Shown here: piece after piece, positions 724 to 31,130 of the stretch
How the letters are laid out: the number at the start of each line of letters is the position of its first letter
Position numbering within the stretch: position 1 is the first letter of the stretch
Sequence record: PP989839.1
DNA length: 64,000 nucleotides
Source of the DNA: Escherichia phage VTCCBPA_322
Strand: one strand, 5' to 3'
The notes under the pieces: model-generated
What the model was told of the DNA's origin: nothing
The model's input: only the letters and a program-made list of their open reading frames with translations
Database searches by the model: none
Position numbers and translations under genes: made by a program

Positions 724-3021
724 ATGAACGAAATGTTCTCGCAAGGTGGCAAAGGCTCCACTGGTATTCTTACCAATAAGCAAGCTATTGCCCGTCATTT
801 TGGTATTAAGCAATCCGAGGTTCTTTACTTCTCTGTTGGTGCTGTATTAGATGGTTATAAAGTCATTTATGACAAGTCCACTCAAAGGAGTTATTCCTTA
901 CCTGCTGGTATTCCATCTGGCACTACTGCTATTAGTCTAAGCACTGCTGCTGTACTTGTACACTCAGCAGGCAGTGAGGACTTAGGTACTTTGGCTGCTA
1001 CTCGTAAGGAATTTATAACTAAGCAGGAGAACTTTAATACAGGCTTTACTATTAGTACCCATAATGAGCAAGTAGTTACTCCTGGTGGGGTTTACTACTG
1101 GGCAGGGTCTTTACCTAAAGTTGTACCTCCTGGTTCCTCTATTGAGGAAACTGGTGGGGTGAATGCTACTGCATGGGTTAATTCATACTCCAATGCTGTC
1201 TTATGTATTAAGGATTTGCTGACACATCCACAGGGTGGCACAGTTAGTGTGGTTGGTTACATTTCTGGTACGGACTTTGGTGGTGGTGATTTTTACTGGG
1301 ATGCTACTCGTCCACGTAGTAAACATAATGGTATTACAGTATTCAGTCCTACTGTTCCATTTAGTGGTTTATATACGGATATACCGAATTTCCATGCTAA
1401 GGTTGGAGAGACTGCACCTGATGCCAATGGTTGTTGGGTGCGTAAGGACTGTGGTCGTAAAGTTCTAATGTCATGGGGTGGTGTAGATATTTCAGGCACT
1501 CAGCCAATGGATGCCGTAGTAACAAGTATGTGTACTTATGTGCATAATACTCGTCAGATTTTGGATGCTGATGAGAATGCTGTACTTAAGGCAGGGTTTA
1601 CTACCGGTACTCAGACCAAAGATAAGCACAATGTGTTTACCCAAGCTTCTGTAATCTTAGAGGGTAAGTATGTCACCATTCGTGGTAATGGGGCTAAGAT
1701 TGATACATATCACCCTGTCCACAGAGAACGTTCTGTATTTGTTCTTCGTAATGGTGGGTATAACATTTCTGGTTTTAAATGGAATGATGGGTACACTGAC
1801 TTTAGTACTTCCCCTACGGATACCCAGCACAAACAAGGTGAATGGTGGATGGGTATTGTTGCAGATGGTGCAGTTACTTTAGTAGCTGACCACCATGAAG
1901 TAACTGCTTCTCAGGTATTTGTACGAGCAGATGCATTTAATGCTACGGACTGGAATGAAAGAGTAACTGTACGGTATAGTAAGTTTGACTACATTACTAA
2001 CTACTGTTTCCTTAGTCGTAAGCTGAAACATTATGAGTTCAGCTACAATGAGGTTAAACACAATGGCCGTGAGTGGCATACTTATGGGGAAGCATGTGCT
2101 CCAACCACATACACCACACATACTATTATACGTAGTAATAACTTCTTCAATCAGATCGCAGAACAATCCTGTATTACTCCTGGGTCATACCATAAGTCCT
2201 GTCTGATTGTTAATAACCATTGTGAACGCTATCGAGGCATTTTCGTTGAGATTGGTTCTTCCAGTAATATCAGCATTCTGAATAACTACTCTTATTCCAG
2301 TGGTGAAAGGGATAGTTCTCATATCCTACTTGTATCTGGTGGGGTAGATGACGAACCAGAGGGTGGTTTGAATAACTTGTTGATTAACGGTAATGTGTTT
2401 GAGAGTGGACCGTATACGCTGCGGGAGTACAACACTGGTACTCCAGTTCGCAGAGGCATTACATTCTCTAATAACCACATTATTGATTGCCCTATGCCTA
2501 ATATGGGTAATGCTGCTTACCACTCAATGGCATTTACCAATAACTACTGCCAGCCACCAGCAGACTTCCCGTATCTGGTATGGGCAGGTAAGAATCCAAT
2601 TATTGAAGGCAATACTTTTGTTGGTGGGGTTATTCGTGCTAGAGATCTGGGTTATACCATTACTAACCCAATCATTCGTAATAACGTATTCCGTGATGGT
2701 AGTACTGTTCAGACATTCCCTGCATTAATTGATATGACTGACTTTACCCGTTTAGTTGCTGAGGGTAACGATGTAACTAATGCTACCTTTACTCGTGTAA
2801 TTGTTGATCCAGCCAACTGTACTTCGGTCGGGTTTAAACGTATTGGGCAGGCAGAGGGTTTTGAATCTAACCCAGCTACCTTGTATGGTGCTAAACTTAC
2901 GGATGTAATTAATGGTGATATTGTGATGAACAATAACCCAGGTAATGCTGAAGGTGGTTACGCATGGGTATGCGTAAATTCTGGTTCTAAACAATTTGGT
3001 AAAATTGTCGTAGCTGTGTAA
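724..3021 (+). CDS. tailspike / tail fiber with right-handed beta-helix (pectate-lyase-like) domain, putative depolymerase
   Basis: ATG with GAAGAGG RBS; 765 aa; Asn-rich rung segments (NNHCERYRGIFVEIG, NNLLINGNVFESG, FSNNHIIDCP, IRNNVFRDG) typical of parallel beta-helix tailspikes; strong terminator downstream. Confidence 0.65.
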   Translation: MNEMFSQGGKGSTGILTNKQAIARHFGIKQSEVLYFSVGAVLDGYKVIYDKSTQRSYSLPAGIPSGTTAISLSTAAVLVHSAGSEDLGTLAATRKEFITKQENFNTGFTISTHNEQVVTPGGVYYWAGSLPKVVPPGSSIEETGGVNATAWVNSYSNAVLCIKDLLTHPQGGTVSVVGYISGTDFGGGDFYWDATRPRSKHNGITVFSPTVPFSGLYTDIPNFHAKVGETAPDANGCWVRKDCGRKVLMSWGGVDISGTQPMDAVVTSMCTYVHNTRQILDADENAVLKAGFTTGTQTKDKHNVFTQASVILEGKYVTIRGNGAKIDTYHPVHRERSVFVLRNGGYNISGFKWNDGYTDFSTSPTDTQHKQGEWWMGIVADGAVTLVADHHEVTASQVFVRADAFNATDWNERVTVRYSKFDYITNYCFLSRKLKHYEFSYNEVKHNGREWHTYGEACAPTTYTTHTIIRSNNFFNQIAEQSCITPGSYHKSCLIVNNHCERYRGIFVEIGSSSNISILNNYSYSSGERDSSHILLVSGGVDDEPEGGLNNLLINGNVFESGPYTLREYNTGTPVRRGITFSNNHIIDCPMPNMGNAAYHSMAFTNNYCQPPADFPYLVWAGKNPIIEGNTFVGGVIRARDLGYTITNPIIRNNVFRDGSTVQTFPALIDMTDFTRLVAEGNDVTNATFTRVIVDPANCTSVGFKRIGQAEGFESNPATLYGAKLTDVINGDIVMNNNPGNAEGGYAWVCVNSGSKQFGKIVVAV

Positions 3022-3024
3022 ACG

Positions 3025-3050
3025 AAAGCCCCCAATTAAGGGGGCTTTTC
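3025..3050. terminator. intrinsic terminator shared by tailspike gene (+) and opposite-strand ORF (-)
   Basis: AAAGCCCCC-AATTAAG-GGGGGCTTT stem-loop followed by TTTTCC on plus strand; A-run gives U-run on minus strand. Confidence 0.7.
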
Positions 3051-3500
3051 CTATATGGAGTTCACTGTTTGCATTACCCTGACTGACACTGATGTTAGGG
3101 TAATTACTTGACCTGAGATATTGAACATACCCAGCTGGATACCATCTACCATAAACGGGTCTGTTGAACCGAGTGTGTAAGTAGCTAATACATTATCTCT
3201 GTTAGCAATGTCCGTACCTTGTACCTTAACACTAGCGTCTGAACCCACTATCGTAGTTCCATTGGTTCGCCTTGTTTGTGTTCTCCATTCCCTAGCTGTA
3301 CCAGCACCTCCTGCAATAGTTCCTGAGATACGTACACTAAACATTACCTGGGTATTTCTGGTTCTAACAGGAAACTTAAGATTACCCTCTTCAATTGTTA
3401 GTGCTGCTGTACCTCCAGGAGTTTTAGTCATGCCTGGTAAAGCAAAGTAATTGAACCAGGACTGGTCATTTACTGCCTGGTTCCCTGTCCACGTATACAA
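3051..3500 (-). CDS. hypothetical protein encoded opposite to the late module
   Basis: 450-nt stop-free frame (chance unlikely); TTG at 3500 or ATG at 3431 as start, neither with a strong RBS; Gly/Thr-rich product. Confidence 0.35.
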   Translation of the reverse strand: MYTWTGNQAVNDQSWFNYFALPGMTKTPGGTAALTIEEGNLKFPVRTRNTQVMFSVRISGTIAGGAGTAREWRTQTRRTNGTTIVGSDASVKVQGTDIANRDNVLATYTLGSTDPFMVDGIQLGMFNISGQVITLTSVSVRVMQTVNSI

Positions 3501-3520
3501 GTCCAGAAGGAAAGTATCTT

Positions 3521-3676
3521 CTAACTCGGTTGGGGGAAAGGTAGCAGTTCTGGTGGGATCTCTGAGATGTTATTAGCAGAAACTATTCGTTCCCCATAAC
3601 TTCCCACGACCAACAATCCTCCCTTCATTTTGCATACAACATCCTTACCACTTTGGAAAATATCTTTAATAGACAT
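3521..3676 (-). CDS. small hypothetical protein (51 aa)
   Basis: ATG at 3676 preceded by GCGAGGT RBS at 6-nt spacing; directly upstream of ORF 3051-3500 in a different frame. Confidence 0.35.
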   Translation of the reverse strand: MSIKDIFQSGKDVVCKMKGGLLVVGSYGERIVSANNISEIPPELLPFPQPS

Positions 3677-3800
3677 AGTTACCTCGCAGTCGATACCAGA
3701 CACTATGTCTGGATGTATTCCATCATACTAAGTATTATCTAAGAGTCATCTTATGATACGACCCTATTGGGGTTCCTAACTTTACAACTACGGTAATATT

Positions 3801-4130
3801 ATGAATGAATCGGGTGAACTGCTTCTAGTCAGACTGGAGGAACGATTGAAGACTCTGTTTGAGAACCAGACAAGGGACAGGCAGGACCGTGAGAAACTGG
3901 AGGAAACTCTGGGAGAACTACGGGATTCAATCAATGACATAGGCAATAGACTAAAGAATGTGGAGGATAGCTTAGCTAAGAATGAACCTACTATTGAAGA
4001 GTTCATCACCATTAAGCATAAGGTCGTTGGTGCCGGAATTTTTGGTAAGTGGGTATGGGCTGGGGCAGGTGCAATTATCGGGGTACTGGCTGCTGCAAGA
4101 CGGGAGATATTCGCATGGTTCGCAGGCTAA
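3801..4130 (+). CDS. membrane-anchored coiled-coil protein, possibly lysis-associated
   Basis: ATG at 3801; charged coiled-coil N-terminus and C-terminal Gly/Ala-rich hydrophobic segment (VVGAGIFGKWVWAGAGAIIGVLAAA); first gene of lysis cluster. Confidence 0.45.
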   Translation: MNESGELLLVRLEERLKTLFENQTRDRQDREKLEETLGELRDSINDIGNRLKNVEDSLAKNEPTIEEFITIKHKVVGAGIFGKWVWAGAGAIIGVLAAARREIFAWFAG

Positions 4131-17345: not shown

Positions 17346-17383
17346 TTCCTATATACGATATAAGTTTGAACAGGAAACATGCT

Positions 17384-20300
17384 ATGTCAACATTTGACCG
17401 TCTGGCAGGTTTCGCAGACAGCATCACTAATGCCAAGCAAGTCGATGTCTCTACTGCAACCTCTCAGAAGCAAGCTGCACAAGGGCAAAGCCCTTTCCAA
17501 TTAACCCCAGAGAATGCTTACAATCTCCAAACTGGTCGTGTAGGTAATCTTGGAATCGGTGCATTCGAACCAGGTTCACTTCAGGCAGATTTCACTCAAG
17601 CCTCTCCATTAGAAATTCTTAATAAATACGGTAATGAGCAAGGTCTACAGATTCTTAATAGCCGAGCTAATGCTGCTGATGTTGTACGTCAGGACTTATC
17701 TAAGCAACGTACTAACGCAGAAGCATTTGGTGATACTCTTTCTGGTGTTGGTCTTGGTGTTGCTAATACCCTTGGGGGCATTGCTGCTCTTGGCACAGGT
17801 CTGGTCAATGATAATGCCGGGGCATCCATTGCTTCCGGGATGGATTGGTTGAATGAAGGTGTACACAATCTACAGTCTGATGCACTGAATGCTACCCGTA
17901 AGGTTGTTCAGAATCAGAACCTGATTTCTGCACAAAAGAACCAGAAACTTTATGAAGAAGACATTAAGAATGGGGAGAGCAGTTTGGTTGCCTCCTTGTC
18001 TCGCATTGGTCGTGACGCTTTTGATTCCGTTGCTAATACACTTGATAATGGTATGGCTGCCACCGATGGACTGAGTGAAGGTGTTGGTTCCCTCTTTACT
18101 GGTGGTCCACTTATCCGTGGTGTATCTGCACTTGGTAAAGTAATGGTAGGTGGTGATAAAGCTATTAAAGGTATTACCTTAGCTGCTGAGTTAGGTTCAC
18201 GCCCTGCACAGGTTGCATTGTCTGCTGGTCGTGTTGCTGCACCTGCTATAGCAATTGGTGGTATGGAAGCTGGTGGTGCATACCAACAGACTGCTTCTGA
18301 AATCATGAAGATGTCCCATCAAGAATTAGCAAGTAAGTCTCCTGTTTATCAACAACATATTGCTGATGGTTTATCCCCTGATGAAGCTCGTCGTCAGACT
18401 GCATCTGAAACAGGTATCGTTGCTGCTGGCTTAACTGCTCCGGTTGCTGCTGCTACTGGTCCACTGGTATCCAAATTTGAACTCAACCCCCTTAAAGTAG
18501 GTTCACTGGCTGGTGCTGGCTCTAACATGCTACGTGAGACTGTAGAAGAAGGTATCCAGTCCGGTACTAGTCAGTTTGCACAGAACAAAGCAATTCAGGG
18601 TAATGTAGATGCTAAGCGTGATTTGCTTAAAGGTGTCGGTGAACAAGCAGGTCTTGGTGCACTTTATGGCTTCGGTAGTGCTGGTGTTGCTCAGGCTCCA
18701 GGTGCAACTGTTAAAGCTGTTGGTGCTTCTGCTGGGCCTGCTTTACGTACTACTCTGGCTGGTGCTTCTCTGGTTGGTAGTGCATTAGCAAAAGCTGCCT
18801 CTCCTATTACTAACATCCTGGTTCAACGTGGGGAAGAAGTTGCTAAGCGTAATGAACAAGCATCTCCTGTATCAGACGCTACAGTTAACGCTGCTGCACA
18901 AGAAGCTACTGCTCAGGCAGAACAAGCACAAGCAACTGTACAGGAAGCAGTAGATGCAATGGATATTTCTCCTGAAGAGAAAGCTGCTGCTACTCAGTAT
19001 GCTGCTGACTTAACTCAGGCAATGAAGTTTGACCCAGTAGAGTTAGAGCAAGCTAATCCAGCAATCCGTGAAGCTGTTTCTGGTTCCACTAACCGTGTAG
19101 AAGCTATTCAGAAGATGGCTGACCTGGTTAATACTGCTGAAGACCCTAACGTTCAAATGGAAGCTGCAATCCAGATGTATGACAACATCATGTCTATGGA
19201 TAGCTTCATTAATCGTGACCCGGGTGCTTTGGCTAATCTGGAACAGGGTTCTCCTGCTGCTAATATTGTTGACCAGTTCTCCGGTCTGATGGCTAACGTA
19301 CAGAATACTCCAAAGGTACTTCGTGCATTCCGTGCCATCCATTCTATGATTCAGGAACAGGCTGAAGCAGGTAAGTTAAAAGCTACTGAAGAAGCTAATC
19401 AAGCCCAAGCAAACAACATTGCTATGGCTGCTGATATGTCTCCAGAAGTATTGGATGCAGATTCAGTGAACATGGTTCTGAAACATGCAAGTGAAGGTAA
19501 GATTACACTGGGTAATCGTCAGCGTGCTGCCTTGCAATCTGCTGCTGCTTTATTACAAGGAGCACGGGAATTTGACGCTAAAGCAGAAGAACTGGGCTTA
19601 CGTCCTCAGGACATTGTTAGTAAACAGATTAAAACCGACGAATCTCGTTCTAATGAAGGTCAGTACTCTGCGTTGCAACATGCTAAACGCATTCGTTCTG
19701 CGTACAACTCTGGTAACTTCGATTTGGCTTCCGCTTATCTCGACGACTTTATGAAGTTCGCCCAGCACATGCAGAATAAGGTCGGAGCGTTGAATGAGCA
19801 TCTGATTTCTGGGAATGCGGATAAGAATAAGTCTGTCCATTATCAGGCTCTTACTCCCTCCCGTGAATGGGTACGTAGTCGTACTGGCCTCGGTGTCAAT
19901 CCGTATGATACCAAGTCGGTTAAGTTTGCCCAGCAAGTAGGACTGGAGGCCAAAACCGTAGCTGATATTGCTAATGCACTTGCTACGGCTTACCCGGAGC
20001 TTAATGTTTCTCATGTGAAGGTTACCCCATTAGATTCACGTCTGGACAAGCCTGCTGCCCAGGTGGTTAAAGAGTTCCGTCAGGGCAATCTTGACGCTGC
20101 TCAATCCCAACAGACCAATGAACCAGTGAATCAGGTTGATAAATCTCCTGCACCTGTGCAAGAGGCCACTACTACTGTACAGCCTAAAGCTAAACTAGTG
20201 GTAGAAAATAAGACTGTTCCTGTTAAGGAGACTAGTTCAAAAGCAGAAGAAGTCTCTACTACCGAATCCGAAAGGGATGCTTATGTGAAAGAAAATACTA

Positions 20301-23300
20301 TTTCACAGGACATCCTCAATAAGAGCGGTGATCGTAGAGAGAGTCCTTGGCTCTTTGCTGATGGTACTGTTGTTGGTTCTAACGGCGATCACATTAGCCT
20401 GTCCGATGTATTTGGTCACGATGGCTATCGTGATATGTCTTTGGATACTGGTGCTGTACGTTCTACTTTCTATAAAGGCAGTGAGCAACCATTCGTATCT
20501 TTGCAACTTTTTGATAATCAGAAGCTAACTACTGAACAATTCAATACTGTTCAATCATTCGTAGAAGCAAACAATGCACTGATTCAGATTGGTGTAGATA
20601 CGTCTGGGCGTAACACCAATAACGTTGAGAAGATAGAAGTATCACTGGCCCAACTGAAAGCAGACTATACCGTTGGTGGTAAACCCCTGTCTGAGATGGA
20701 AACAGTGTTCCCTGTCTATAACAATGACAAGACACCGAACCAGTTCCTGAAAGCATTTACCCTGCCGGAAGAACCTAAGTCTCGCACCATTGGTTCTGAA
20801 TCCCCTTTGACTGATGTTAAGCAAGCACTGTCTTCTGCTGCTCGCTTTGAAGCATTCACTCAAAAAGAAAATAACGCTCTCACAAGTGATGTGATTAAGC
20901 GTTATCAGGACTTAATGGACTTTGGTGAAACTCTGAAGACTACTTTGTCTGACCGTCTGACTAAGTTTCTTGCTAATAAGAATGTTGGTAAACGTTTTGC
21001 AGAAGGTACTGAGGCTAACCGTTGGGTAGGTGGTAAGTTACTTAACATCGTAGAGAAAGATGGGGATACCTTTAAGTTCAATGACCAGTTGTTAGAGACT
21101 GCTGTACTTGCTGGTCTGCAATGGCGACTTACTGCTACACAAAATGCTGCTGTTAAAGATATGAAAGACGTAGCTGCTATTACTGGAGTAGAAGCATCCT
21201 TGTTACCTGAAGGTATCCTGGCTGAATTTGAGAATGCTCAGACTCTGGTTGAAGCTACTAACTCACTGGCTCAAAAGATTGAATCTTACTGGGGTCTGAA
21301 TCGTAATCCTAATGCACCTCTGGGTTATACCAAAGGTATCCCAATGGCAATGGCTACAGAGATTCTGTCTTCTTTCATTGAGATGGGTGAAGTTAAAGAA
21401 TCTATGCTGGATGTGTCTGAGTTTGACCCAGCTTCTAATAAGACTGTTGGTCTGTATACTATTGAGAAACTGGATGATAATGATGCCATTAACAAATTCC
21501 CTACTGCTATTGAGGAAGCTGTCCTCGTAGAACCAGAAGAGAAAATGTACTTTGGTGATGATATTCCTTCCGTGGCTCAAACACAGTTACGTAATCCTGC
21601 TGTTAAGAATACCCCAGAGCAGAAAGCTGCTCTTAAAGCAGAACAGGCTACCGAGTTCCGTGTACACATGCCTATGGTTAACTTCTATGAAGCATTAGGT
21701 CGTGACAACATTCTGGAACTGATGGGTGCTGGTACTCTTAATCCTGAACTGCTGAACGTGAATACTGCTAAATCATTGGAAGGTAAAAACCTGTCCGTGT
21801 CCATGGCATATGATTCCTTGTTTGGTGTAATCAATCAATTACAGGAACAGGAGAATGGTCTGGATACGCCTATTCACTATGGTTACAACATGACCCGTGT
21901 AGGTCGTATGCAGATGCTTGGTAAGAACAACCCACAATCCAGCAAGCTGGTTCGTGAAGCAATTCTGCCAACCTTCTCTACTATTGACTTAAGTAATGAA
22001 AATAGCCAAACGTTCTCTGACTTCCAGTTAGGTCTGGCTCAGGCATTGGGCATCAAGGTTCATAATATGTCCCGTGAAGCTATGTCTGAAAAACTGACCA
22101 AAGCTCTGGAAGGTAATTTGAAACCTGCTGTTGATATGATGGTTGAGTTTGATAAGTCCGGTCACTTACCTGCTGATGCAGTAGATATTCTGAAGACATC
22201 TCTGGGTGGTGATAAATCATTCGTAGCTCTTATGGCTCTTATGGAATATGCCCGTTACCTTAACAGTACTGACCGTGCTAACTTTAATACCCCACTGTAC
22301 GTTGAAGCCGATGGTGTAACCAACGGGCCAATCAATGCAATGGTATTAATGACCGGTGGTAAGTTCACTTCGGATTGGATTAAGAATACTGCTAAAGGTG
22401 GTTTGTTCTTCGGTAAAGCTGGTAAGACTATGAACGAACACCGTTCACAGGATGACAGTGTTGACTTGTATGAAGCATCTACTAATGGTCTGCAACAAGC
22501 ACTAAATGAGTTACGTACTACTTACCGTAATAATGTTCCGGTCATGAACCAGATGAATCATCTTCAGAAGTTAATGGACCTGTTCATTAAAGACTTTAAC
22601 CTGAACGAAGACGGTACTTTGGACCTGAAACGTGGTATCGCTAAAAACCCACTGACTATTACCATCTATGGTTCTGGTGCTCGTGGTATTGCTGGCAAGA
22701 TGGTTAGTGCAATTACTGACACCATCTATGAACGCTTCAGTGATGTTCTGCAAGCTCGTGCTGCTGACCCTAGCATTTCCCCAGCTATGGCAATGTTTGG
22801 TAAGGAGGCTGCGTCTGAGGCTAATGCTCAGGCTATGCTGGATACTTTCCTTACATCTATGGAAGCACTGACTGGTAATGTTCCAGTTATGCGTAAAGGT
22901 CAACTGTCTATTCAACAGGTAGAAGGTGCTCTGACTGGTAAGTTAGACCCACAGAAATTTACTGTATCTGGTAATGCCCTGAAGAACTTACAAGAGAACA
23001 TGCTTCACCTGTTCGTTGAACCAATGCGTACTGGTATCCGTAATACTGTTGGTGAAGGTCTTATGCATTCTACTGAGAACTTGCAGAAGGCTACCCAGAT
23101 TCAGTCTTTGGTTCTGCAAGACATGTTCCAACAAGCAGTACAGGCTAAGCTGGCAGAAAAAGAAAAAGACCCAACATGGAAGAAGGGTGATTTCTTAACA
23201 CAGAAAGAACTTAATGAAATCCAGGAATCATTATCTCCACTGGCTCCAATGATTGAGACTGGTTCACAGACTTTCTACATTGCTGGTAGTGAGAATACTG

Positions 23301-26300
23301 ACGTTGCTAACCAAGTTCTGGCTACCAACTTAGATGATCGTATGCGTGTGCCAATGAGCATCTATGCTCCTTCACAGGCAGGCGTTGCAGGTATTCCATT
23401 TATGACCATTGGTACTGGCGATGGCATGATGATGCAGACCCTTTCTACTATGAAAGGTGCTCCGAAGAATACCCTGAAAATCTTTGATGGTATGAACATT
23501 GGTATCGACAACATCACTGATGCAAGTCGTAAAGCTAACGAGGCTGTATACACTTCCTGGCAGGGTAACCCTATCAAGAATGTCTACGACTCCTTCTCTA
23601 AGTTCATGAAGAATGTAGACTTCAGCAAACTGTCTGATGAAACCAAACAGGCTATCGCTAAATCTGCTCTGGAATATGACCAGCGTGAAGGTGCTACCGA
23701 TGACCTGTTACGTGTTGGTGCTGAACAGATTGAACGTAATCTGCGCAACATTGCTCTGGGTGTGGATATTCGCCACAAAGTAATGAACCAGGTACAGACT
23801 ACTGTTGACCAGATGGCTGCTGTAGGTGCTCCTTATGTGAACAACGGTAAAATCTCTCTGGAAGGTCTGACTGTAGACCAGCAAGTAGCTAAGCTGAACG
23901 AACTGTTTGATGCTGAGTTAAACAAGCGTCGTGATGCAGTACGTGCTGCTAAAGCAGAACCAGTGAAAGAAGTACCAGCAATGGAACAGGTTGGTCGTGT
24001 ACTGAAGTCTGGTGTACGTCTGCTGTCTAATACTGCTATCTCTAAGCTGGCTAAAGAGATGTCTCCGGAACAGCAAGCGGTACTGAAAGAAGTACAGAAA
24101 TCCCTTGCTGCTAAAGACTACAAAGTTGTTTATGGTACTCCTGCTCAATTAGATGCTTATGCTATTGAGAAGAATATTACTCGCCCAGCACCAGAAGATA
24201 TTGAAGCTGCTGAAGCAGGTAATGCATACGGCTGGACTAACTTTGATGATAAGACTATCTACTTAGTTACCCCTTCCTTGGAGACTCTGGTTCATGAATT
24301 GGTACATGCTTCTACTTTCGAATCTGTACTGGCTCATTATGAAGGTACTCCAAATGAAGCAGTCCAAAATATTGAAGACTTAATGAATCAGTTCCGTACT
24401 CTGGATGTTAAGGATGAATCTCCGGCAGTACGCGAAGCATATGCAGATGCTCTTAATACCATTAATGGTCATTTGTCTAATGGCTTCATTGAACCAGCAA
24501 TGGCTAAAGCTGCTGCACTTAACGAGTACATGGCATGGGGTTTAACTAACCGTGAACTAATTAGCAAGCAGAAGAAAACTACTGCACTGAAGACTATGGT
24601 TCAGGCTGTGTATGAAGCAATCAAGCGTCTGGTATTCGGACGTAAGAAAGCTCCCGCTAATGCAGATGATATGTTCTCTGGTTTACTATTTAACTCTGCT
24701 GTAGTTATGCGAGGACAAGCTCCTACTGCTGCTGTAGCCAAGGATACTACTCTGTTCCATAACAAAGCATACGGTGACAATACTCGTCTGGAAGAGCTAG
24801 GGAAAACCTTCGATAAACTGATTACAGACTACATTGGTTCAGAACCAGTACAACAAGTAATTCGTAAGGGTAAATTCTCTGATGCAGTAGTGAATGCAAC
24901 TAAAGTAACCCGTGATGTTCAGGCTCATGGCTTCACTATGAATATGCAGGAACAGCGTCTATTCACTAACATCGTTGCTGCTCTGGCTACTGAAGCTGCC
25001 ATTAGTCCTGCTGCCCTGGCTCGTGCACAGGAATACTATACGCATGTTACTAAGAACCTGACCGTTGAATCGTTCATGGCTGACCCGGATAGTACTAACC
25101 CTGCTGACCGTTACTATGCTCAACAGAAGTTCGATACCATTATGGGTGCTAACAATATTGAGTTTGATGCACAGGGCCGTTCTTCCTTACTGCCTACCTT
25201 TGTTGGTCTGGCAATGGTAAGTGAAGAGGTACGTAAAGTACTGGCAGACATTCCTGTTATGAAAGCAGATAAGCAATCCGGTAATACAGTTGATGCAATG
25301 CTGACTAACATTGGTACTGCTGCAATGGCTAGTCTGAATGCTCGTGTAGCGGGTGATACTAAGGCTACCAATGTACAGGAAGGTATGGATGCACTGGCTC
25401 AGACAATCATGCAGACGAGTCTCAATGCACAGTCCTTCTATGATTCCGTTGCTACTCCTAGTGGTAATGCTATTGACCGTGCTAACCAGTATCTGGTGGA
25501 TTCTATTGATGCATTGTCTACCCGTGCTTTAGAAGGTGCTCGTGAAGTTGCAGCTAATACCAAGAACCCGTTGGTTAAAGGTGCTGCTCATGCTGCACAA
25601 CTAATAGCTGCTATTGCTACAGAGAAGAATGGTGAAATCGTAGCTGAAGGCGTTATGGCTGCAATGAACCAGGGTAAAGTGTGGCAACCTTTCCATGACC
25701 TGGTTAATGACTTAACAGGCCGTACTAAGAGCAATGCTTCTGTATACGATTTGATTAAGGCAGTACGTGCACAGGTACAAGCTGACCGTCAACAGTTCCG
25801 TGAACATTTGCCTACCACTATCGCATCTAAGTTCAGCCGTAAGCTGACTAATGATGAATGGAAAGCAATGCATACTGGTATGGGTAAAACTGACTTAGCT
25901 GTTTTACGTGACACTATGTCTCTGGCTGAAATTCGTGACTTGCTGACTGACCAAAAGATTGTTGACCGTGAAGTGAATAAGCTGGAAGCAGACTTACAGA
26001 AACAAGCTGGTCGTAACTGGCCTCTGATTAGCCGTAAATCTAAGCAACTAGCTCAGTACATGATTAACGGTACAGTTGGTAATAACCTGCTGCGTAATGC
26101 TACAGCAATCTCTCGTATGCTGGGTGAACGTCAGGCTGCACGTTCTACTGTAGATGTAGCTCAACTGGATAAACTGATTACTCTGTATGCACTGGAAGCA
26201 ATGAGTAAGACTGACCGTGAGATGTTATCTTCACTGGCTCAATCAGAAGTTGATGGAATTGATTTTGCTACTTCTTACCTGGTTGGTCAGCGTAAAGATG

Positions 26301-28096
26301 AAATGGCTAAAGCCAAGTCTGACATGCGTGCAACCCTGAACCAGTACAAAGGTTATATCCCAAGTGAGACTAAGCAAGGTGTTAACCTGATTGTTGCTGA
26401 AGACAGTCAATTTGCTGATTTGATTGAGAAGTCTTATGTACGTCTGGGTACTTATCAAGGTAGTTCTGCTAATCGTGGTTCAGCACGTAGCTACTACTTC
26501 GCACCGGTACAGGCACAGGCTCCATTCTCACAGGGTATTCTACAGAACGTTCGTAATACTGCTGGTGGTGTAGACCTTGGTACAGGATTTACGATGGGAA
26601 CCATGGTGGCTGGTCGTATTACTGACAAGCCTTCTGTAGACCGTATCACTAAAGCACTGGCTCGTGGTGAACGAGGTAATGAGCCACTGATGCCTGTATA
26701 TGATGACAAAGGTAATGTAGTTGCTTATGAACAATCTATTGACCCTAACATGCTGAAGCACATTGAGGGTGAGAACCATCTTGCTCGTGCAATCGGTGTA
26801 TGGCGTGGTCGTCAGGTGGAAGAAGCTAAGGCTCAGCGTTTCAACGATATGCTAATTGAGAATCTGCATAGCATGTATGAGAACGACATTAAGATGTCTG
26901 CCTCTAATAAGTCCCAGTACGTTAACCTTCTTGGTTCTAAGCTGGACCCAGTAACTGCTGATGCCCTTAAGCTGATGAACAGTGAAACACGTCAGAAAGC
27001 AGAAAGCCTGTTTGGCGAAGGTGAACTGTGGGTTCGTCGTGACATGCTGAATGATGCACTAGGCTATCGTGCAGCTTCCGTTGGTGATGCCTGGTCTGGT
27101 AATTCTCGTTGGTCCCCGGAAACACTGGATACCTTTAAGAAAGCTATGCTTGGTGTGTTCGGCAACCGTGCCTACAAGTATGTAATGGGTGGTGAGAACC
27201 TGGTTCAGAACTTAGTTAAAGAAGCTAAGACTCTGATTGTAGTTAAATCAGTGGTTGTACCTGCTGTTAACTTCCTGGCTAACCTTTACCAGATGGTTGG
27301 TCGTGGTGTACCCGTTAAGAACATTGCTAAAAGCATTCCACAGAAGACTGCTGAGATTAACCAGTACCTGAAATCTCGTCTGCGTCAGGTAGACGCAGAA
27401 GCAGAATTACGTGCAGCCACTAACCCGAACCAGATTCGTAAACTTAAGGCTGAGATTCAGTCTATTACTGACAGCCATAAGCGTATGAGTATCTGGCCTC
27501 TGTTAGAAGCTGGTGAGTTCTCTTCAATTGCAGATGCTGGTATTGGGCGTGATGATATCCTGATTACTGAGGGTAAACTCCATGAATACATGGATAAACT
27601 GGCTGATAAGTTACCTAAGTCTGTACGCAACGCTGGACGTTATGCACTTATCACCAAAGATACTGCTCTCTTCCAGGGTATCCAGAAGACGGTTGAGTAC
27701 TCTGACTTTATCGCTAAAGCAATCATCTATGATGATTTGACTCAGCGTAAAGGTAAGACTCGTGAAGAAGCACTAGGACGTGTAACGGAGGAGTTCATTA
27801 ACTATGACCGTTTGCCTGGTCGCTTCCGTGGGTATATGGAAAGTGTTGGTTTAATGTGGTTCTACAACTTTAAGATTCGTTCTGCGAAAATTGCAGTATC
27901 CATGATTCGTAACAACCCGGTACATGCAGCTATGGCTATGTTGGCTCCAACTCCTACCATGTTTGGTAACGTTGGTTTACCTATTCAGGACAACATCTTC
28001 AGTATTGCTGCACAAGGTAATCTTGGTTACTCCTGGGGCTTCGGTCAGGGCTTACGTGCCCATAACCTTAACCCTTGGCTCAACCTCACTAACTAA
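17384..28096 (+). CDS. virion-encapsidated giant RNA polymerase (N4 gp50-like vRNAP)
   Basis: 3570-aa ORF (ATG 17384 with AGGAAA RBS; track start 17366 is TTG); central region has T7-like polymerase motifs: DG near PLYVEADGVTNGPINA, motif B-like KNPLTITIYGSGARG, motif C-like KIFDGMNIG; hallmark of N4-like phages. Confidence 0.9.
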   Translation: MSTFDRLAGFADSITNAKQVDVSTATSQKQAAQGQSPFQLTPENAYNLQTGRVGNLGIGAFEPGSLQADFTQASPLEILNKYGNEQGLQILNSRANAADVVRQDLSKQRTNAEAFGDTLSGVGLGVANTLGGIAALGTGLVNDNAGASIASGMDWLNEGVHNLQSDALNATRKVVQNQNLISAQKNQKLYEEDIKNGESSLVASLSRIGRDAFDSVANTLDNGMAATDGLSEGVGSLFTGGPLIRGVSALGKVMVGGDKAIKGITLAAELGSRPAQVALSAGRVAAPAIAIGGMEAGGAYQQTASEIMKMSHQELASKSPVYQQHIADGLSPDEARRQTASETGIVAAGLTAPVAAATGPLVSKFELNPLKVGSLAGAGSNMLRETVEEGIQSGTSQFAQNKAIQGNVDAKRDLLKGVGEQAGLGALYGFGSAGVAQAPGATVKAVGASAGPALRTTLAGASLVGSALAKAASPITNILVQRGEEVAKRNEQASPVSDATVNAAAQEATAQAEQAQATVQEAVDAMDISPEEKAAATQYAADLTQAMKFDPVELEQANPAIREAVSGSTNRVEAIQKMADLVNTAEDPNVQMEAAIQMYDNIMSMDSFINRDPGALANLEQGSPAANIVDQFSGLMANVQNTPKVLRAFRAIHSMIQEQAEAGKLKATEEANQAQANNIAMAADMSPEVLDADSVNMVLKHASEGKITLGNRQRAALQSAAALLQGAREFDAKAEELGLRPQDIVSKQIKTDESRSNEGQYSALQHAKRIRSAYNSGNFDLASAYLDDFMKFAQHMQNKVGALNEHLISGNADKNKSVHYQALTPSREWVRSRTGLGVNPYDTKSVKFAQQVGLEAKTVADIANALATAYPELNVSHVKVTPLDSRLDKPAAQVVKEFRQGNLDAAQSQQTNEPVNQVDKSPAPVQEATTTVQPKAKLVVENKTVPVKETSSKAEEVSTTESERDAYVKENTISQDILNKSGDRRESPWLFADGTVVGSNGDHISLSDVFGHDGYRDMSLDTGAVRSTFYKGSEQPFVSLQLFDNQKLTTEQFNTVQSFVEANNALIQIGVDTSGRNTNNVEKIEVSLAQLKADYTVGGKPLSEMETVFPVYNNDKTPNQFLKAFTLPEEPKSRTIGSESPLTDVKQALSSAARFEAFTQKENNALTSDVIKRYQDLMDFGETLKTTLSDRLTKFLANKNVGKRFAEGTEANRWVGGKLLNIVEKDGDTFKFNDQLLETAVLAGLQWRLTATQNAAVKDMKDVAAITGVEASLLPEGILAEFENAQTLVEATNSLAQKIESYWGLNRNPNAPLGYTKGIPMAMATEILSSFIEMGEVKESMLDVSEFDPASNKTVGLYTIEKLDDNDAINKFPTAIEEAVLVEPEEKMYFGDDIPSVAQTQLRNPAVKNTPEQKAALKAEQATEFRVHMPMVNFYEALGRDNILELMGAGTLNPELLNVNTAKSLEGKNLSVSMAYDSLFGVINQLQEQENGLDTPIHYGYNMTRVGRMQMLGKNNPQSSKLVREAILPTFSTIDLSNENSQTFSDFQLGLAQALGIKVHNMSREAMSEKLTKALEGNLKPAVDMMVEFDKSGHLPADAVDILKTSLGGDKSFVALMALMEYARYLNSTDRANFNTPLYVEADGVTNGPINAMVLMTGGKFTSDWIKNTAKGGLFFGKAGKTMNEHRSQDDSVDLYEASTNGLQQALNELRTTYRNNVPVMNQMNHLQKLMDLFIKDFNLNEDGTLDLKRGIAKNPLTITIYGSGARGIAGKMVSAITDTIYERFSDVLQARAADPSISPAMAMFGKEAASEANAQAMLDTFLTSMEALTGNVPVMRKGQLSIQQVEGALTGKLDPQKFTVSGNALKNLQENMLHLFVEPMRTGIRNTVGEGLMHSTENLQKATQIQSLVLQDMFQQAVQAKLAEKEKDPTWKKGDFLTQKELNEIQESLSPLAPMIETGSQTFYIAGSENTDVANQVLATNLDDRMRVPMSIYAPSQAGVAGIPFMTIGTGDGMMMQTLSTMKGAPKNTLKIFDGMNIGIDNITDASRKANEAVYTSWQGNPIKNVYDSFSKFMKNVDFSKLSDETKQAIAKSALEYDQREGATDDLLRVGAEQIERNLRNIALGVDIRHKVMNQVQTTVDQMAAVGAPYVNNGKISLEGLTVDQQVAKLNELFDAELNKRRDAVRAAKAEPVKEVPAMEQVGRVLKSGVRLLSNTAISKLAKEMSPEQQAVLKEVQKSLAAKDYKVVYGTPAQLDAYAIEKNITRPAPEDIEAAEAGNAYGWTNFDDKTIYLVTPSLETLVHELVHASTFESVLAHYEGTPNEAVQNIEDLMNQFRTLDVKDESPAVREAYADALNTINGHLSNGFIEPAMAKAAALNEYMAWGLTNRELISKQKKTTALKTMVQAVYEAIKRLVFGRKKAPANADDMFSGLLFNSAVVMRGQAPTAAVAKDTTLFHNKAYGDNTRLEELGKTFDKLITDYIGSEPVQQVIRKGKFSDAVVNATKVTRDVQAHGFTMNMQEQRLFTNIVAALATEAAISPAALARAQEYYTHVTKNLTVESFMADPDSTNPADRYYAQQKFDTIMGANNIEFDAQGRSSLLPTFVGLAMVSEEVRKVLADIPVMKADKQSGNTVDAMLTNIGTAAMASLNARVAGDTKATNVQEGMDALAQTIMQTSLNAQSFYDSVATPSGNAIDRANQYLVDSIDALSTRALEGAREVAANTKNPLVKGAAHAAQLIAAIATEKNGEIVAEGVMAAMNQGKVWQPFHDLVNDLTGRTKSNASVYDLIKAVRAQVQADRQQFREHLPTTIASKFSRKLTNDEWKAMHTGMGKTDLAVLRDTMSLAEIRDLLTDQKIVDREVNKLEADLQKQAGRNWPLISRKSKQLAQYMINGTVGNNLLRNATAISRMLGERQAARSTVDVAQLDKLITLYALEAMSKTDREMLSSLAQSEVDGIDFATSYLVGQRKDEMAKAKSDMRATLNQYKGYIPSETKQGVNLIVAEDSQFADLIEKSYVRLGTYQGSSANRGSARSYYFAPVQAQAPFSQGILQNVRNTAGGVDLGTGFTMGTMVAGRITDKPSVDRITKALARGERGNEPLMPVYDDKGNVVAYEQSIDPNMLKHIEGENHLARAIGVWRGRQVEEAKAQRFNDMLIENLHSMYENDIKMSASNKSQYVNLLGSKLDPVTADALKLMNSETRQKAESLFGEGELWVRRDMLNDALGYRAASVGDAWSGNSRWSPETLDTFKKAMLGVFGNRAYKYVMGGENLVQNLVKEAKTLIVVKSVVVPAVNFLANLYQMVGRGVPVKNIAKSIPQKTAEINQYLKSRLRQVDAEAELRAATNPNQIRKLKAEIQSITDSHKRMSIWPLLEAGEFSSIADAGIGRDDILITEGKLHEYMDKLADKLPKSVRNAGRYALITKDTALFQGIQKTVEYSDFIAKAIIYDDLTQRKGKTREEALGRVTEEFINYDRLPGRFRGYMESVGLMWFYNFKIRSAKIAVSMIRNNPVHAAMAMLAPTPTMFGNVGLPIQDNIFSIAAQGNLGYSWGFGQGLRAHNLNPWLNLTN

Positions 28097-28097
28097 A

Positions 28098-28128
28098 TGA
28101 AAAAGCCCCTCTAATGAGGGGCTTTACT
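28098..28128. terminator. bidirectional intrinsic terminator at convergence of late (+) and early/middle (-) transcription
   Basis: AAAGCCCCTC-TAAT-GAGGGGCTTT 10-bp stem; U-run on minus strand (TTTTTCATTT), weaker on plus. Confidence 0.75.
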
Positions 28129-28386: not shown

Positions 28387-28420
28387 GAAAGCCCTCACTA
28401 GGAGGGCTTGTTTTGTTTTG
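28387..28420 (+). terminator. hairpin with plus-strand T-run inside minus-strand module (antisense-blocking or bidirectional terminator)
   Basis: GAAAGCCCTC-ACTA-GGAGGGCTT followed by GTTTTGTTTT on plus strand. Confidence 0.4.
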
Positions 28421-28930: not shown

Positions 28931-28968
28931 AAATAAAAAAGTCCCCCAGAGTGACGGCTCCAGGGGAC
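28931..28968 (-). terminator. intrinsic terminator ending the non-coding / tRNA-like transcription unit
   Basis: minus strand AAGTCCCC...GGGGACTT stem followed by TTTTTTATTT. Confidence 0.65.
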
Positions 28969-29752
28969 TTAGTACTATTTACCCATAGCTGGGAGGCTTT
29001 TGGTTCTTACCACGAAGACAGTCCACGCTGACTAGGCTTGGGATTGATAGTCCCGTTCCTGTGGTAATTACTCAGGCTAGGATTTAAGGAGTTCCTATTC
29101 TCCAGCGAAATTCCCGTCGAGGGGAATAACAATACAATAGCAGCCACTGGACTGTCTTACCAGTGTTGTCTTTAGAGTGCTGTGCAATCAGGACTATGTT
29201 ACTGCTAAATAGGTGAGTCATGCCAGGCTCTAACTGGCTCCTTCTTCGCAATCCTTACATACCCCTACATAATTATTGCGTTAAGCTTTTTTGTTTAAGT
29301 TTAAGTGAAGGCGTTCTTGCTGACTCATAATTAGGTTGGGCGTTTGACGAATGACTAGTTCGTTACTACCCGTTTGCCATAAGTACCTGGCGACTTTGGT
29401 TTGAGGTGGGAGTCCGAGTCCTGTACAGCCTTACCGTTCACACATTGGCAGCGTATCTAGAATAGCACTTCCGGCAACTGGATTTAACTGTTACACCTCA
29501 AATCTGGTAGGGGCGTCCAGAAGTCTCATCTGGTACTTACGCCGTCGTATGGTTACGACTTACCCCCATTGTTAGTTGCTCGGCTCACCCCCTCGACTAA
29601 AGTGACCTTTGAGGGGCTACGCTACACTATGTGTTTCATCCCATTACAGAGAATCATCAGGCGTATTAGTTGGTCACCCCGGATACCTACTTACCGAGCA
29701 TTGGTATCGTATGACTCTTCCAATTAGAAGTAGCACTGTTGCAGTCGTCACT

Positions 29753-29826
29753 GCCCATAGGTAAGGACTCGAACCTTACAATACCATTGGTTTACAATGT
29801 CGCTGTACCATTTCGCGTTCTATGCA
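29753..29826 (-). tRNA. tRNA-sized tRNA-like element (degenerate or unusual tRNA)
   Basis: minus strand: canonical T-arm TAAGG-TTCGAGT-CCTTA, D-loop-like AAATGGTACA flanked by CGC/GCG, anticodon-like arm CATTG-TAAAC-CAATG; acceptor pairs only 5-6 of 7; no encoded CCA. Confidence 0.3.
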
Positions 29827-29840
29827 ATGCTACTTTGAAT

Positions 29841-29964
29841 TGGTTATCAGTGAAGGATTCGAACCTCCGGTTGGAGTCTATAGCTTACCGCAGCAGCCCT
29901 CCAATCTAGCGGTGTCACACTTAGTCCAAACTTGAACATGTCAAGCCATCTCGTGCAACTGATA
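29841..29964 (-). ncRNA. tRNA-like RNA, about 124 nt, with perfect acceptor stem, canonical T-arm and encoded CCA
   Basis: minus strand 5'-TATCAGT...GGAGG-TTCGAAT-CCTTC-ACTGATA-A-CCA-3'; 7/7 acceptor pairing; long internal stem TTGGAG/CTCCAA abutting T-arm; too long for a canonical tRNA. Confidence 0.45.
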
Positions 29965-29966
29965 AT

Positions 29967-30094
29967 TGGTTCCAGGAGAAGGAATCGAACCTCCAAGTCA
30001 GGCCGTGAACCCTGACTATATCACCTACACTTAGTAGGCTTACTCTAACTGCTGCGCATTACATTAAAGCTATACCTAGTGTTGATATCCTGGA
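29967..30094 (-). ncRNA. tRNA-like RNA, about 128 nt, with perfect acceptor stem, canonical T-arm and encoded CCA
   Basis: minus strand 5'-TCCAGGA...GGAGG-TTCGATT-CCTTC-TCCTGGA-A-CCA-3'; 7/7 acceptor pairing; 7-bp variable-arm-like hairpin AGTCAGG/CCTGACT abutting T-arm; separated from next element by AT. Confidence 0.45.
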
Positions 30095-31130
30095 ATTGGA
30101 GTTGCCAGGGATTCCACCTGGCTCCATCTGTTTTTATAGTCACTCAGATATCGTCTGGACTCTTTACTGTGGGCTGTACCGACTACTTAGAATAACTACG
30201 GCAAAGATTATTCCACAGCTTACATTGATGGTACAACCCATCAAAGAGTACACTAGCACTGGGCCACGCATAAGTGGGCATCGGCCTTCCTCCCACAGCT
30301 AATCTACTAATGTACTCATTGATAGGATGTCATAATAGGAGGGAGGGGACGAATCCTCCCTTTATACCCTATGTTGCATGTAAGACCTAACATCTCGATG
30401 TTGTATAAATAGCGTAATGAACTATCCGACATTATTGGTTAATGTTGTGCTCAACATGAGCGTTAGTTGATAAGGGATCTGAAGCCTTATCCTAAAGATT
30501 CTAACCTTTGGGATATAGCCTAAGATTCAGAAATGGCCCCTATAGGGAGAGGCCATTGATTAACCCGAATGTTGCTTTACATTTTCTGTAATAACCAATT
30601 CTTAAAATAGTCTGTCTGACGGATGGGGGGCCACCCCTAGCGTCAGTGCCATACGGCAAAGATTAAGTTAAGAAAGGTTATGATAGGAGTTCCTATCTCA
30701 AAGGATTCTAACAGAACCCTTCACGATATTAACTACTCTTTTTTAATGCCTTTACTTCACCATCTTTATACCAAGCATACGGTATTAAGATTTTGCATCC
30801 TTCCGAATCAATGTGGAATGCTTTTTTTCCTTCAGCAGGTTCTCCACCCACGAAAGAACTAACCTTTCCATTGAGCCAGTGAATAGTAAATTTGTTCATG
30901 CTAACCCCGTTTGAACCAATCCCCTTCGGAGAGTATTAAAGGGGACTGGTTCGGTTGTTGTTATTCTGGCGGCTTGTCACCACCGTGTTTACCACTGCAT
31001 TTCCACAGGATAATGACAGTGATGATAAAAGCTATGTATGGAGCCGACACGTCTATAATTCTGACCAGTAGTAGCATCAGGACTATAAACACTACCACAC
31101 CTAGCAGCAGCTTCTGAGCCACCTACCAGA

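Follow-up and report, generated by a model that had tools for sequence, protein, structure and literature searches.

The 64,000-nucleotide (nt) stretch of DNA from Escherichia phage VTCCBPA_322 (PP989839.1) analysed here, referred to as the window, carries at positions 28969–30728 a minus-strand array of RNA elements, among them a 103-nt structured RNA that we call E1 and a domain with a hammerhead core. We suggest that this region is most probably a polycistronic small-RNA operon, assembled from mobile cassettes and occupying the tRNA slot of the N4 family, without a decoding tRNA. Its location, synteny, strand, non-coding status, mosaicism and conservation across phage families are observed in the comparisons given below, as are the base pairings of E1 and the hammerhead-like domain. 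A phage tRNA cluster is commonly treated as a mere list of tRNAs; the slot here is filled by conserved RNAs of other kinds, unreported by any annotation pipeline or Rfam model.

A non-coding mosaic in the tRNA slot

By Megablast the window is a Gamaleyavirus (G7C-like N4 phages, Schitoviridae), with ~90–95% identity to many coliphages. The RNA locus sits at the distal end of the middle (replication) block of minus-strand genes and separates the gp47 homologue from that of gp49: next to it lie homologues of N4 gp45 (the single-stranded DNA-binding protein, SSB), gp46 and gp47 in one direction and a gp49-family protein in the other. It lies at the convergence of two transcription directions, where the plus-strand open reading frame (ORF) of the virion RNA polymerase (17366–28096, 3,576 amino acids), with the structural genes upstream of it, meets a long series of minus-strand genes running from 64000 down to 28137. 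At the same position, and on the strand that corresponds to the window's minus strand, N4-type phages carry tRNAs for Asn, Ser, Thr and Pro, and KP8 carries tRNAs for Asn, Pro, Gln and Leu (also PMC6950046). The number of good tRNAs at the locus ranges from zero to two across the Gamaleyaviruses: PBM-2, E20 and ECBP1 have a tRNA-Ile(AAU), Bas96 has a tRNA-Val, and G7C, PGN829.1 and the window have none.

Mapped against 13 relatives, the region resolves into a mosaic of blocks that are present in anything from 1 to all 13 of them and that meet at sharp junctions. Cassettes of 60–150 nt are gained or lost independently among the relatives, and sensitive blastn searches revealed piecemeal sharing with unrelated phages. 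All recognisable RNA features, namely T arms, CCA ends, E1 and the hammerhead core, lie on the minus strand. Across genera, several modules show higher conservation than the proteins encoded next to them. Read from 5′ to 3′ on that strand, the proposed unit would comprise a leader, a block shared with Kuravirus, a short element termed B1, three tRNA-like RNAs, the hammerhead-like domain, a truncated tRNA-like unit, E1, a terminal conserved block (block F) and a terminator. None of these RNA modules is represented in Rfam, and literature searches for earlier descriptions of the elements or their sequences found nothing relevant.

The original prediction, made from the letters of the sequence, had proposed a dedicated non-coding RNA unit and had pointed to the large structured RNAs that phages carry next to tRNA genes. 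The unit stands, in that its features share the minus strand, it ends in a terminator, tRNAs are syntenic with it and two of its modules covary; the single large RNA does not. One structured RNA of the GOLLD, ROOL or HEARO class would account for a long non-coding span at a tRNA locus with several local structures, but the Rfam check that the prediction proposed gave no match at gathering score and, at E ≤ 10, only terminator look-alikes and a weak Hammerhead_3, with no GOLLD, ROOL, HEARO, OLE or similar family at either level. No long-range pairing beyond single modules was found, and the pieces occur separately in other phages and are inserted or deleted singly among the relatives, as independent 60–150-nt cassettes. 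We therefore regard a giant RNA of this kind as very unlikely.

The span first described as free of ORFs was 28969–31130, in which the longest ORF on either strand encodes 68 amino acids. That description holds for 28969–30728, which is without coding signal, and fails for the right-hand ~400 base pairs (bp), which hold two small minus-strand genes. The first, of 56 codons (30729–30899), shows 25/12/67 substitutions at the three codon positions with zero indels and is annotated in relatives, for example as G7C gp47.2; the second (30961–31122) encodes 53 amino acids with two hydrophobic stretches, shows 43/18/75 substitutions, again with zero indels, and has 81–84% DNA identity to KP8 and N4. 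Neither gene has a Pfam match, and a hairpin at 30913–30952, with a minimum free energy (MFE) z-score of −3.8, comes after the 53-amino-acid gene. Within 28969–30728, none of the 17 ORFs of at least 35 amino acids has third-position bias, and most are broken by frame-shifting indels or in-frame stops in relatives. The true non-coding stretch is thus 28969–30728, which is 1,760 nt or 2.75% of the window. Small proteins, recoding or sequencing frameshifts could in principle hide coding capacity here, as annotators do call many small ORFs (11 in Bas96) and two real genes lie at the right edge of the span, but the absence of third-position bias and the common indels and stops leave this explanation with next to no credence.

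The Bas96 record lists its 11 tiny ‘hypothetical proteins’ on both strands of the homologous RNA region (1984–3898 of the fetched locus), and the codon-position test applied here suggests that small ORFs of this type are spurious.

A replication origin, which the prediction had named as its alternative, or some other DNA-level site whose blocks would be protein-binding or unwinding elements, could explain why the region adjoins replication genes (SSB, gp46, gp47 and an AAA ATPase), and why it sits at a transcription convergence point near which, at about 28000, the cumulative GC skew turns. The skew turns, however, where the coding strand switches, and the GC content stays at 0.39–0.49 with no AT-rich dip that could serve as an unwinding element; there are no iterons, the sole repeat family being a T-arm motif. 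Conservation moreover obeys RNA base-pairing on one strand, with base-pair covariation, and phages whose replication systems are unrelated (lambda, T4-like phages and Kuravirus) carry the same modules, so that an origin appears extremely improbable.

E1 and the hammerhead-like domain

Covariation with homologous regions of related phages, one of the checks proposed with the prediction, is strong for two modules, E1 and the hammerhead-like domain. E1 (29400–29502, minus strand) is laid out as a 9-bp stem P1, stems P2 and P3, a conserved internal loop GAA/CAA, an invariant four-pair stem P4a and a variable apical hairpin; a side hairpin, P5, of 3 bp with a 7-nt loop, abuts the 3′ strand of P1, and CCA follows P1. 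This structure was derived by hand and then tested on alignments. In a MAFFT alignment of 21 sequences, 92% of cells are paired (33–42% in slid controls), 22 of the 30 pairs are compensatory and none of 500 shuffles is as good; a model-based alignment of 34 distinct sequences gives 91% paired (31–47% in slid controls), 23 of 30 compensatory pairs and no equal among 500 shuffles. Because its MFE z-score is ~0, the structure of E1 is visible by covariation alone. The covariance model gives the window 99.2 bits and lambda 78.2 bits, and the E1 core is 98.9% identical to that of N4 over 89 nt, compared with ~70% (67–73%) for the neighbouring genes.

Copies of E1 occur between two tRNAs in the tRNA cluster of the rV5-like Enterobacter phage F1M1E and, in the T4-like Salmonella phage S16, immediately behind tRNA-Gln. 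In IMG/VR, a pattern scan returned 68 loci, of which ~58 are real members, distributed over N4-like, rV5-like, T4-like and lambdoid phages; more than 15 are lambdoid prophages, in which E1 is placed after nutL boxB and before the start codon of N, and lambda itself has the element. Outside the lambdoids, CCA follows P1 in 21 of 28 contexts, and E1 begins 1–4 nt past the CCA of a tRNA in 11 contexts. What comes downstream varies (a further tRNA, small ORFs, an HNH-like ORF or lambda N). Common to the copies is that a functional RNA precedes E1 and the next unit follows it, which fits a role in processing or insulation. P1 and the side hairpin together make 12 bp, the length of a tRNA acceptor/T-arm stack.

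Judged by sequence and covariation, E1 and the RNase III hairpin of the lambda N leader are one covariation-supported family, which is absent from Rfam (Rfam 15). The window and lambda elements share CGGAAGUGC, GCUGCCAAUG and the side hairpin CAGGACUnnGACUCC, and in both a functional RNA upstream (nutL in lambda, a tRNA or tRNA-like unit in the window) is followed by E1 and then by the next unit. They differ in that the window E1 is followed by CCA and more non-coding RNA and has no ribosome-binding site after it. RNase III is known to target the lambda N leader (Steege 1987, as cited in PMC5371410); the cleavage is established for lambda only, and for the non-lambdoid members it is predicted by analogy. 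The occurrence of the lambda N-leader hairpin family in the tRNA clusters of lytic phages (T4-like, rV5-like and N4-like) raises the question of what role its core plays. Two other identifications of E1 were dropped: a tRNA-Sec or allo-tRNA, since E1 lacks an anticodon arm, and a homologue of T4 rnaC or rnaD, since alignment showed no homology.

Public records pass over such loci. The N4 RefSeq record has nothing annotated in the 1.5-kb gp47–gp48 gap that holds E1 (883–2401 of the fetched locus), and in SPSP, a near-identical N4-type phage, the same gap also holds tRNAs and B1. RNA genes are missed as well, F1M1E having one unannotated tRNA of Rfam grade (1707–1781 of the fetched locus).

The second module is a pseudoknotted domain of 146 nt (29575–29720, minus strand) with a hammerhead core in type I order. 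CUGAUGA (29654–29660) is followed by helix II, GAAA, the helix III hairpin and a U-A, and the strand after U-H complements the five bases preceding CUGAUGA to form helix I; cleavage is predicted between 29623 and 29622. Four extra helices, Pa–Pd, complete the domain, two of them forming pseudoknots. The window has the core nucleotides C3 U4 G5 A6 N7 G8 A9 and G12 A13 A14, the A15.1-U16.1 pair and H17, and this core is invariant in all family members, except that N7 varies in one (L123). The helices covary, helix II as UCUC/GGGA, UCUC/GAGA and GCUGG/CCAGC and helix III as CAC/GUG, CAU/AUG and CC/GG, and Pa–Pd do so as well; helix I, of 4–5 bp, shows G-U changes only. Over the alignment, 93.4% of cells are paired (slid controls, 34–42%) and compensatory change is seen at 11 of 36 pairs; helices II and III fall short because the Pseudomonas rows are out of register by one column. 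In 1.62 Mb of fetched sequence, a type I hammerhead descriptor matched this family only, and a shuffled copy gave no match.

Few Gamaleyaviruses carry the domain, which is 86% identical to its homologue in Klebsiella phage 05F01 and 80% identical to those in Pseudomonas phages; further members were added by a second IMG/VR scan. In 05F01 the homologue lies directly after a tRNA in an unannotated cluster, whose seven tRNAs are of Rfam grade (164–1192 of the fetched locus), and the Pseudomonas copy has a canonical CUGAUGAG-stem-CGAAAC. A hammerhead-type core directly after tRNAs in several phage groups suggests ribozyme-assisted processing of tRNA clusters. Hammerheads in phage intergenic regions have been proposed to cut long transcripts into shorter units (PMC3088659), and the present domain resembles known phage and prophage hammerheads in its core nucleotides, its three helices (II and III covarying), its pseudoknots and a phage context that fits the cutting of long transcripts. 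Unlike them, it has the core set within a fold of 146 nt that adds four helices and contains two pseudoknots, its family sits directly after a tRNA in a tRNA cluster, and its self-cleavage is a prediction.

Two other foldings of the domain were set aside. Rfam's type III reading, with cleavage after GGUAUC, lacks a helix I hairpin, and GGUAUC covaries with GAUACC as Pd; a hairpin GAGCAU/AUGCUC at the 5′ end was replaced by the covarying long-range helix Pa. In Pseudomonas phage phita81A (1170–1375 of the fetched locus), a B1-type hairpin, the hammerhead-like domain and an intrinsic terminator form a compact stand-alone unit, ~200 nt upstream of a tRNA-Thr, which is a candidate construct for a cleavage assay. 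In Klebsiella phage phi_KPN_H2 (minus strand, ~1340–1410 of the fetched locus), a stretch with CUGAUGA ... GAAAC, which the type I descriptor missed, lies between B1 and a tRNA-Ser and might be a second hammerhead-like core.

tRNA-like units and the other blocks

The region was also said to host tRNA-like elements. Pieces of this kind are indeed present on the minus strand, none of them being a tRNA gene by ARAGORN or Rfam: ARAGORN at default settings finds zero tRNA genes in the whole 64-kb window, with candidates in the region surfacing only at a threshold lowered to 80% (-ps80), and the Rfam tRNA model (RF00005) has no match at gathering score or at E ≤ 10. As the window has no canonical tRNA, the phage relies wholly on host tRNAs; the sister genera (N4, KP8) carry 4–6. 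A T-arm-like repeat, AAGGAYTCGAACC, occurs five times on the minus strand (29763, 29853, 29979, 30494 and 30701), and the tRNA-like RNAs are numbered below by increasing coordinate.

The tRNA-like RNA 2, of 124 nt (29841–29964, minus strand), has an acceptor stem of 7 bp (UAUCAGU/ACUGAUA) and U8; its T arm is GGAGG-UUCGAAU-CCUUC, its ACCA end is encoded, and a long irregular arm replaces the anticodon arm. It is 95–100% identical in 36 Gamaleyaviruses and 91–92% identical in KP8-like Klebsiella phages, that is, held at 91–100% identity over two phage genera, and is annotated in none. The tRNA-like RNA 3, of 129 nt (29967–30095, minus strand), lies 2 nt upstream of it. Its acceptor stem measures 8 bp (UUCCAGGA/UCCUGGAA), and it has a long arm, an additional hairpin of 7 bp, a T arm and a CCA end; its MFE structure is a four-way junction (z = −3.47), and it is a variable cassette found in ~2 of the 13 relatives. 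Both RNAs have an acceptor stem, a T arm with a UUCRANY loop (consensus GGAGG-UUCGAWU-CCUUC) and a 3′ CCA. Both also have long irregular arms, and the ‘anticodon’ loop of tRNA-like RNA 1 is of 5 nt, so that a 5-bp anticodon stem with a 7-nt loop is found in none of the three. A truncated unit of 64 nt (29503–29566, minus strand; MFE z = −2.33), 100% identical in many Gamaleyaviruses, consists of a closing stem, one hairpin and a T-arm-like hairpin (CCAGA/UCUGG), and ends in ...CCCCUACCA (CCA), 2 nt ahead of E1.

The tRNA-like RNA 1 (77 nt, 29752–29828, minus strand) is degenerate. Detected by ARAGORN with -ps80 only and with an MFE z-score of 0.14, it has a good T arm together with acceptor-stem mismatches; it is present in 2–3 of the 13 relatives, is 80% identical to Salmonella phage TR2, and looks like a truly degraded tRNA.

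Such a unit invites the reading that the whole region is a graveyard of decayed tRNA genes, neutral debris with hitch-hiking hairpins and nothing functional. The broken look of tRNA-like RNA 1, the lack of a canonical tRNA in the window and likewise in G7C and PGN829.1, the highly variable content of the region between close relatives and the fact that the region as a whole is not thermodynamically special all agree with it. Debris would not be expected, however, to be retained by a lytic genome as compact as 72 kb, in which every relative keeps 1.8–2.4 kb at this locus, nor to contain several modules that outdo the adjacent proteins in cross-genus conservation; compensatory changes are found in E1, in the hammerhead-like domain and in a hairpin of the Kuravirus-shared block, and the same modules lie inside intact tRNA clusters of unrelated phages. 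We consider the graveyard explanation, although it is the main rival, unlikely.

B1, a 61-nt element (30101–30161, minus strand; MFE z = −1.95), combines a nearly invariant 5′ part, AGUCCAGACGAUAUCUGAGUGACUnnAAAAACAGAUGG, with a covarying 3′ hairpin whose loop is UGGAAnC. It was found at 26 IMG/VR loci and in N4, KP8, Kuravirus and Klebsiella siphophages, where it usually lies a short way ahead of a tRNA or tRNA-like unit; in Pseudomonas phages the hammerhead domain follows immediately after the 3′ hairpin of B1. Its identity to N4 and KP8 is 90–96%, against 67–73% for the genes of the adjacent proteins. An origin in the host was rejected, as B1 is present in only 15 of 5,426 Escherichia coli genomes, the sole site inspected being a prophage, and a promoter was rejected because the would-be −10 varies (AT, TA, TT) while its flanks are invariant. 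In the prophage of E. coli WP2-S18-ESBL-08, B1 (3501–3558 of the fetched locus) falls within the 750 nt that separate an XRE repressor gene from rdgC and is opposite in orientation to the flanking plus-strand genes, unlike in lytic phages.

The block shared with Kuravirus (phiEco32-like phages), at 30167–30372 on the minus strand, is 74–78% identical to XT32, FH3, SU10 and IME267. It contains an invariant, acceptor/T-arm-like minihelix at 30335–30372 (outer helix AUAGG/CCUAU, inner GGGAGG-AUUCGUCC-CCUCCC), a long hairpin at ~30239–30327 and a further hairpin at 30167–30218; RNAalifold predicts 45 pairs for the block, 9 of them compensatory and all nine in the long hairpin. Upstream of it, the 5′ leader (30473–30728, minus strand) shows 95–97% identity across all 13 Gamaleyavirus loci, and the region's most stable hairpins lie in it (30682–30697, 30600–30673, 30532–30557 and 30477–30526; MFE z −3.35 and −3.29). 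At the other end, block F, the 3′-terminal conserved non-coding block (28971–29399, minus strand), is 95–98% identical among Gamaleyaviruses, with parts 81% identical to KP8 and 83% to N4; at a junction within it (29208–29215), PBM-2 and E20 have ~157 extra nt with a tRNA-Ile(AAU) and an odd tRNA, both absent from the window.

The minus-strand terminator that the prediction had placed at the left edge (28931–28968) was borne out as an intrinsic terminator at 28939–28970, with a 13-bp stem containing 7 G-C pairs followed by TTTTTATTT (MFE z = −2.8), and it ends the RNA unit. The description of the region as packed with stable hairpins fared less well: outstanding z-scores are limited to some pieces (−3.3 at 30470–30560 and at 30600–30700, −3.5 at 29967–30095), and the mean over 120-nt windows is −1.06 compared with −0.78 in the flanking genes (Mann–Whitney p = 0.10).

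Proposed expression and known counterparts

How the array is transcribed and processed, and what any of its products might do, are read here from its anatomy and from homology with lambda, T4 and hammerheads. A single precursor transcript would cover the array, with transcription probably reading through from the small genes upstream. Read-through is assumed because no terminator lies between those genes and the array, and because the sigma-70-like match at 30705–30732, whose sequence forms conserved hairpins, was rejected as a promoter, its −10 hexamer not being kept in Kuravirus homologues. The precursor would then be cut into small stable RNAs, with host RNase P and 3′ trimming acting at the acceptor/T-arm-like minihelices and RNase III at E1, as in lambda; the hammerhead-like domain may self-cleave between 29623 and 29622.

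Several observations weigh against an operon of functional small RNAs. The high identity among Gamaleyaviruses partly reflects recent common descent, and some cassettes (tRNA-like RNA 1, parts of block F and parts of 30000–30100) could be decaying remnants. Folding energies over the whole region are not significantly lower than in the coding flanks, no conserved promoter for the unit was found, and the literature yielded no transcript data for the window phage or any Gamaleyavirus. P1 of E1 is 9 bp, compared with ~16 bp in lambda, where the RNase III cut presumably lies in the extended lower stem of the hairpin, and is perhaps too short for RNase III; P1–P4 stacked make a helix of more than 25 bp, but one broken by internal loops. 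The Rfam Hammerhead_3 model gives only 18.8 bits on the window and 23.8 bits on 05F01, with a gathering score of 48.5, and the Pseudomonas copy has no Rfam hammerhead match at E ≤ 1. Finally, the 10.1/11.1 position is a U-U mismatch in the window and 05F01, G-U in one further member (L130) and G-C only in the Pseudomonas copies; the base pairs beside the core (10.1-11.1 and 1.1-2.1) were required in the screen of Perreault et al. 2011 (PMC3088659), which the window would fail.

By analogy, the closest precedent for the products of the array is the pair of stable RNAs of T4 known as species 1 and species 2. Like their locus, the T4 tRNA cluster (rnaC for species 1, rnaD for species 2), the array is a one-strand polycistronic RNA locus, here at a fixed genome position where sister genera have tRNAs, and it contains non-tRNA RNAs of 100–140 nt that have a T arm and a closing stem; rnaC shares with tRNA-like RNA 3 the same four-way layout of closing stem, long arm, extra hairpin and T arm. 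Such loci are also invaded by homing endonuclease genes in both cases (segB in T4, gp47.1 in G7C, an HNH-like ORF in S16). Unlike T4, the window phage is without any canonical tRNA, its RNAs show no meaningful alignment to rnaC or rnaD save one common 12-mer, and T4 is without E1, B1 and the hammerhead-like domain, all present in the window. To our knowledge, the role of the T4 species has been open since the 1970s. If functional, the RNAs described here would be additions to a very short list of phage stable RNAs of the species 1/2 type, and would improve the annotation of therapeutic coliphages, in which this region is now blank or full of spurious small ORFs.

Another comparison is with the irregular and tRNA-like RNAs of polycistronic tRNA arrays, namely allo-tRNAs, which have 8/4 or 9/3 acceptor/T stems (Mukai et al. 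2017, PMC5389517) and occur, like the present RNAs, in phage polycistrons. Acceptor and T-arm helices add up to 12–13 bp in E1 (9+3), tRNA-like RNA 3 (8+5) and tRNA-like RNA 2 (7+5). In contrast to allo-tRNAs, these three lack a 7-nt anticodon loop or a recognisable anticodon arm, and none is detected as a tRNA; decoding is therefore unlikely. The locus as such is of a known kind, a phage tRNA cluster with accessory RNAs. New, by the measure of Rfam 15 and the searchable literature, are its tRNA-free composition, the link between the lambda hairpin and tRNA clusters, the hammerhead-like domain and the 124-nt tRNA-like RNA.

A broader and distinctly tentative proposal, which we hold to be possible rather than probable, is that the modules form a mobile kit of RNA cassettes across phage tRNA loci, in which the lambda hairpin is a domesticated E1 and the hammerhead an active variant. 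The phages in which modules were seen are N4-like, T4-like and rV5-like phages, Stephanstirmvirinae, Kuravirus, siphophages and lambdoids. E1 would then be an old and widespread phage RNA whose core is more than a cleavage site, that core being the GAA/CAA loop, the invariant P4a and a 9+3-bp mimic of an acceptor/T-arm stack with CCA. As a tRNA mimic it could engage RNase P or the CCA-adding enzyme, or serve as a decoy against host defences that target tRNAs, and the hammerhead-like domain would be an active ribozyme variant that processes tRNA-cluster transcripts.

Homing-endonuclease genes may be drivers of cassette exchange. In G7C the HNH gene gp47.1 lies in the RNA locus (2774–3271 of the fetched locus), in S16 an HNH-like ORF comes directly after E1 (1556–2137 of the fetched locus), and segB lies in the T4 tRNA cluster.

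A 14-mer, TAATCTTTGCCGTA, occurs twice on the minus strand of the region (30197–30210 and 30652–30665), and its 12-mer core, ATCTTTGCCGTA, is also found near the 5′ end of T4 rnaC (3021–3032 of the fetched T4 locus), with a chance expectation of ~0.05. Beyond the left edge of the array, where the virion RNA polymerase gene meets the last minus-strand genes, hairpins at 28102–28125 and 28389–28409 score as terminators on both strands.

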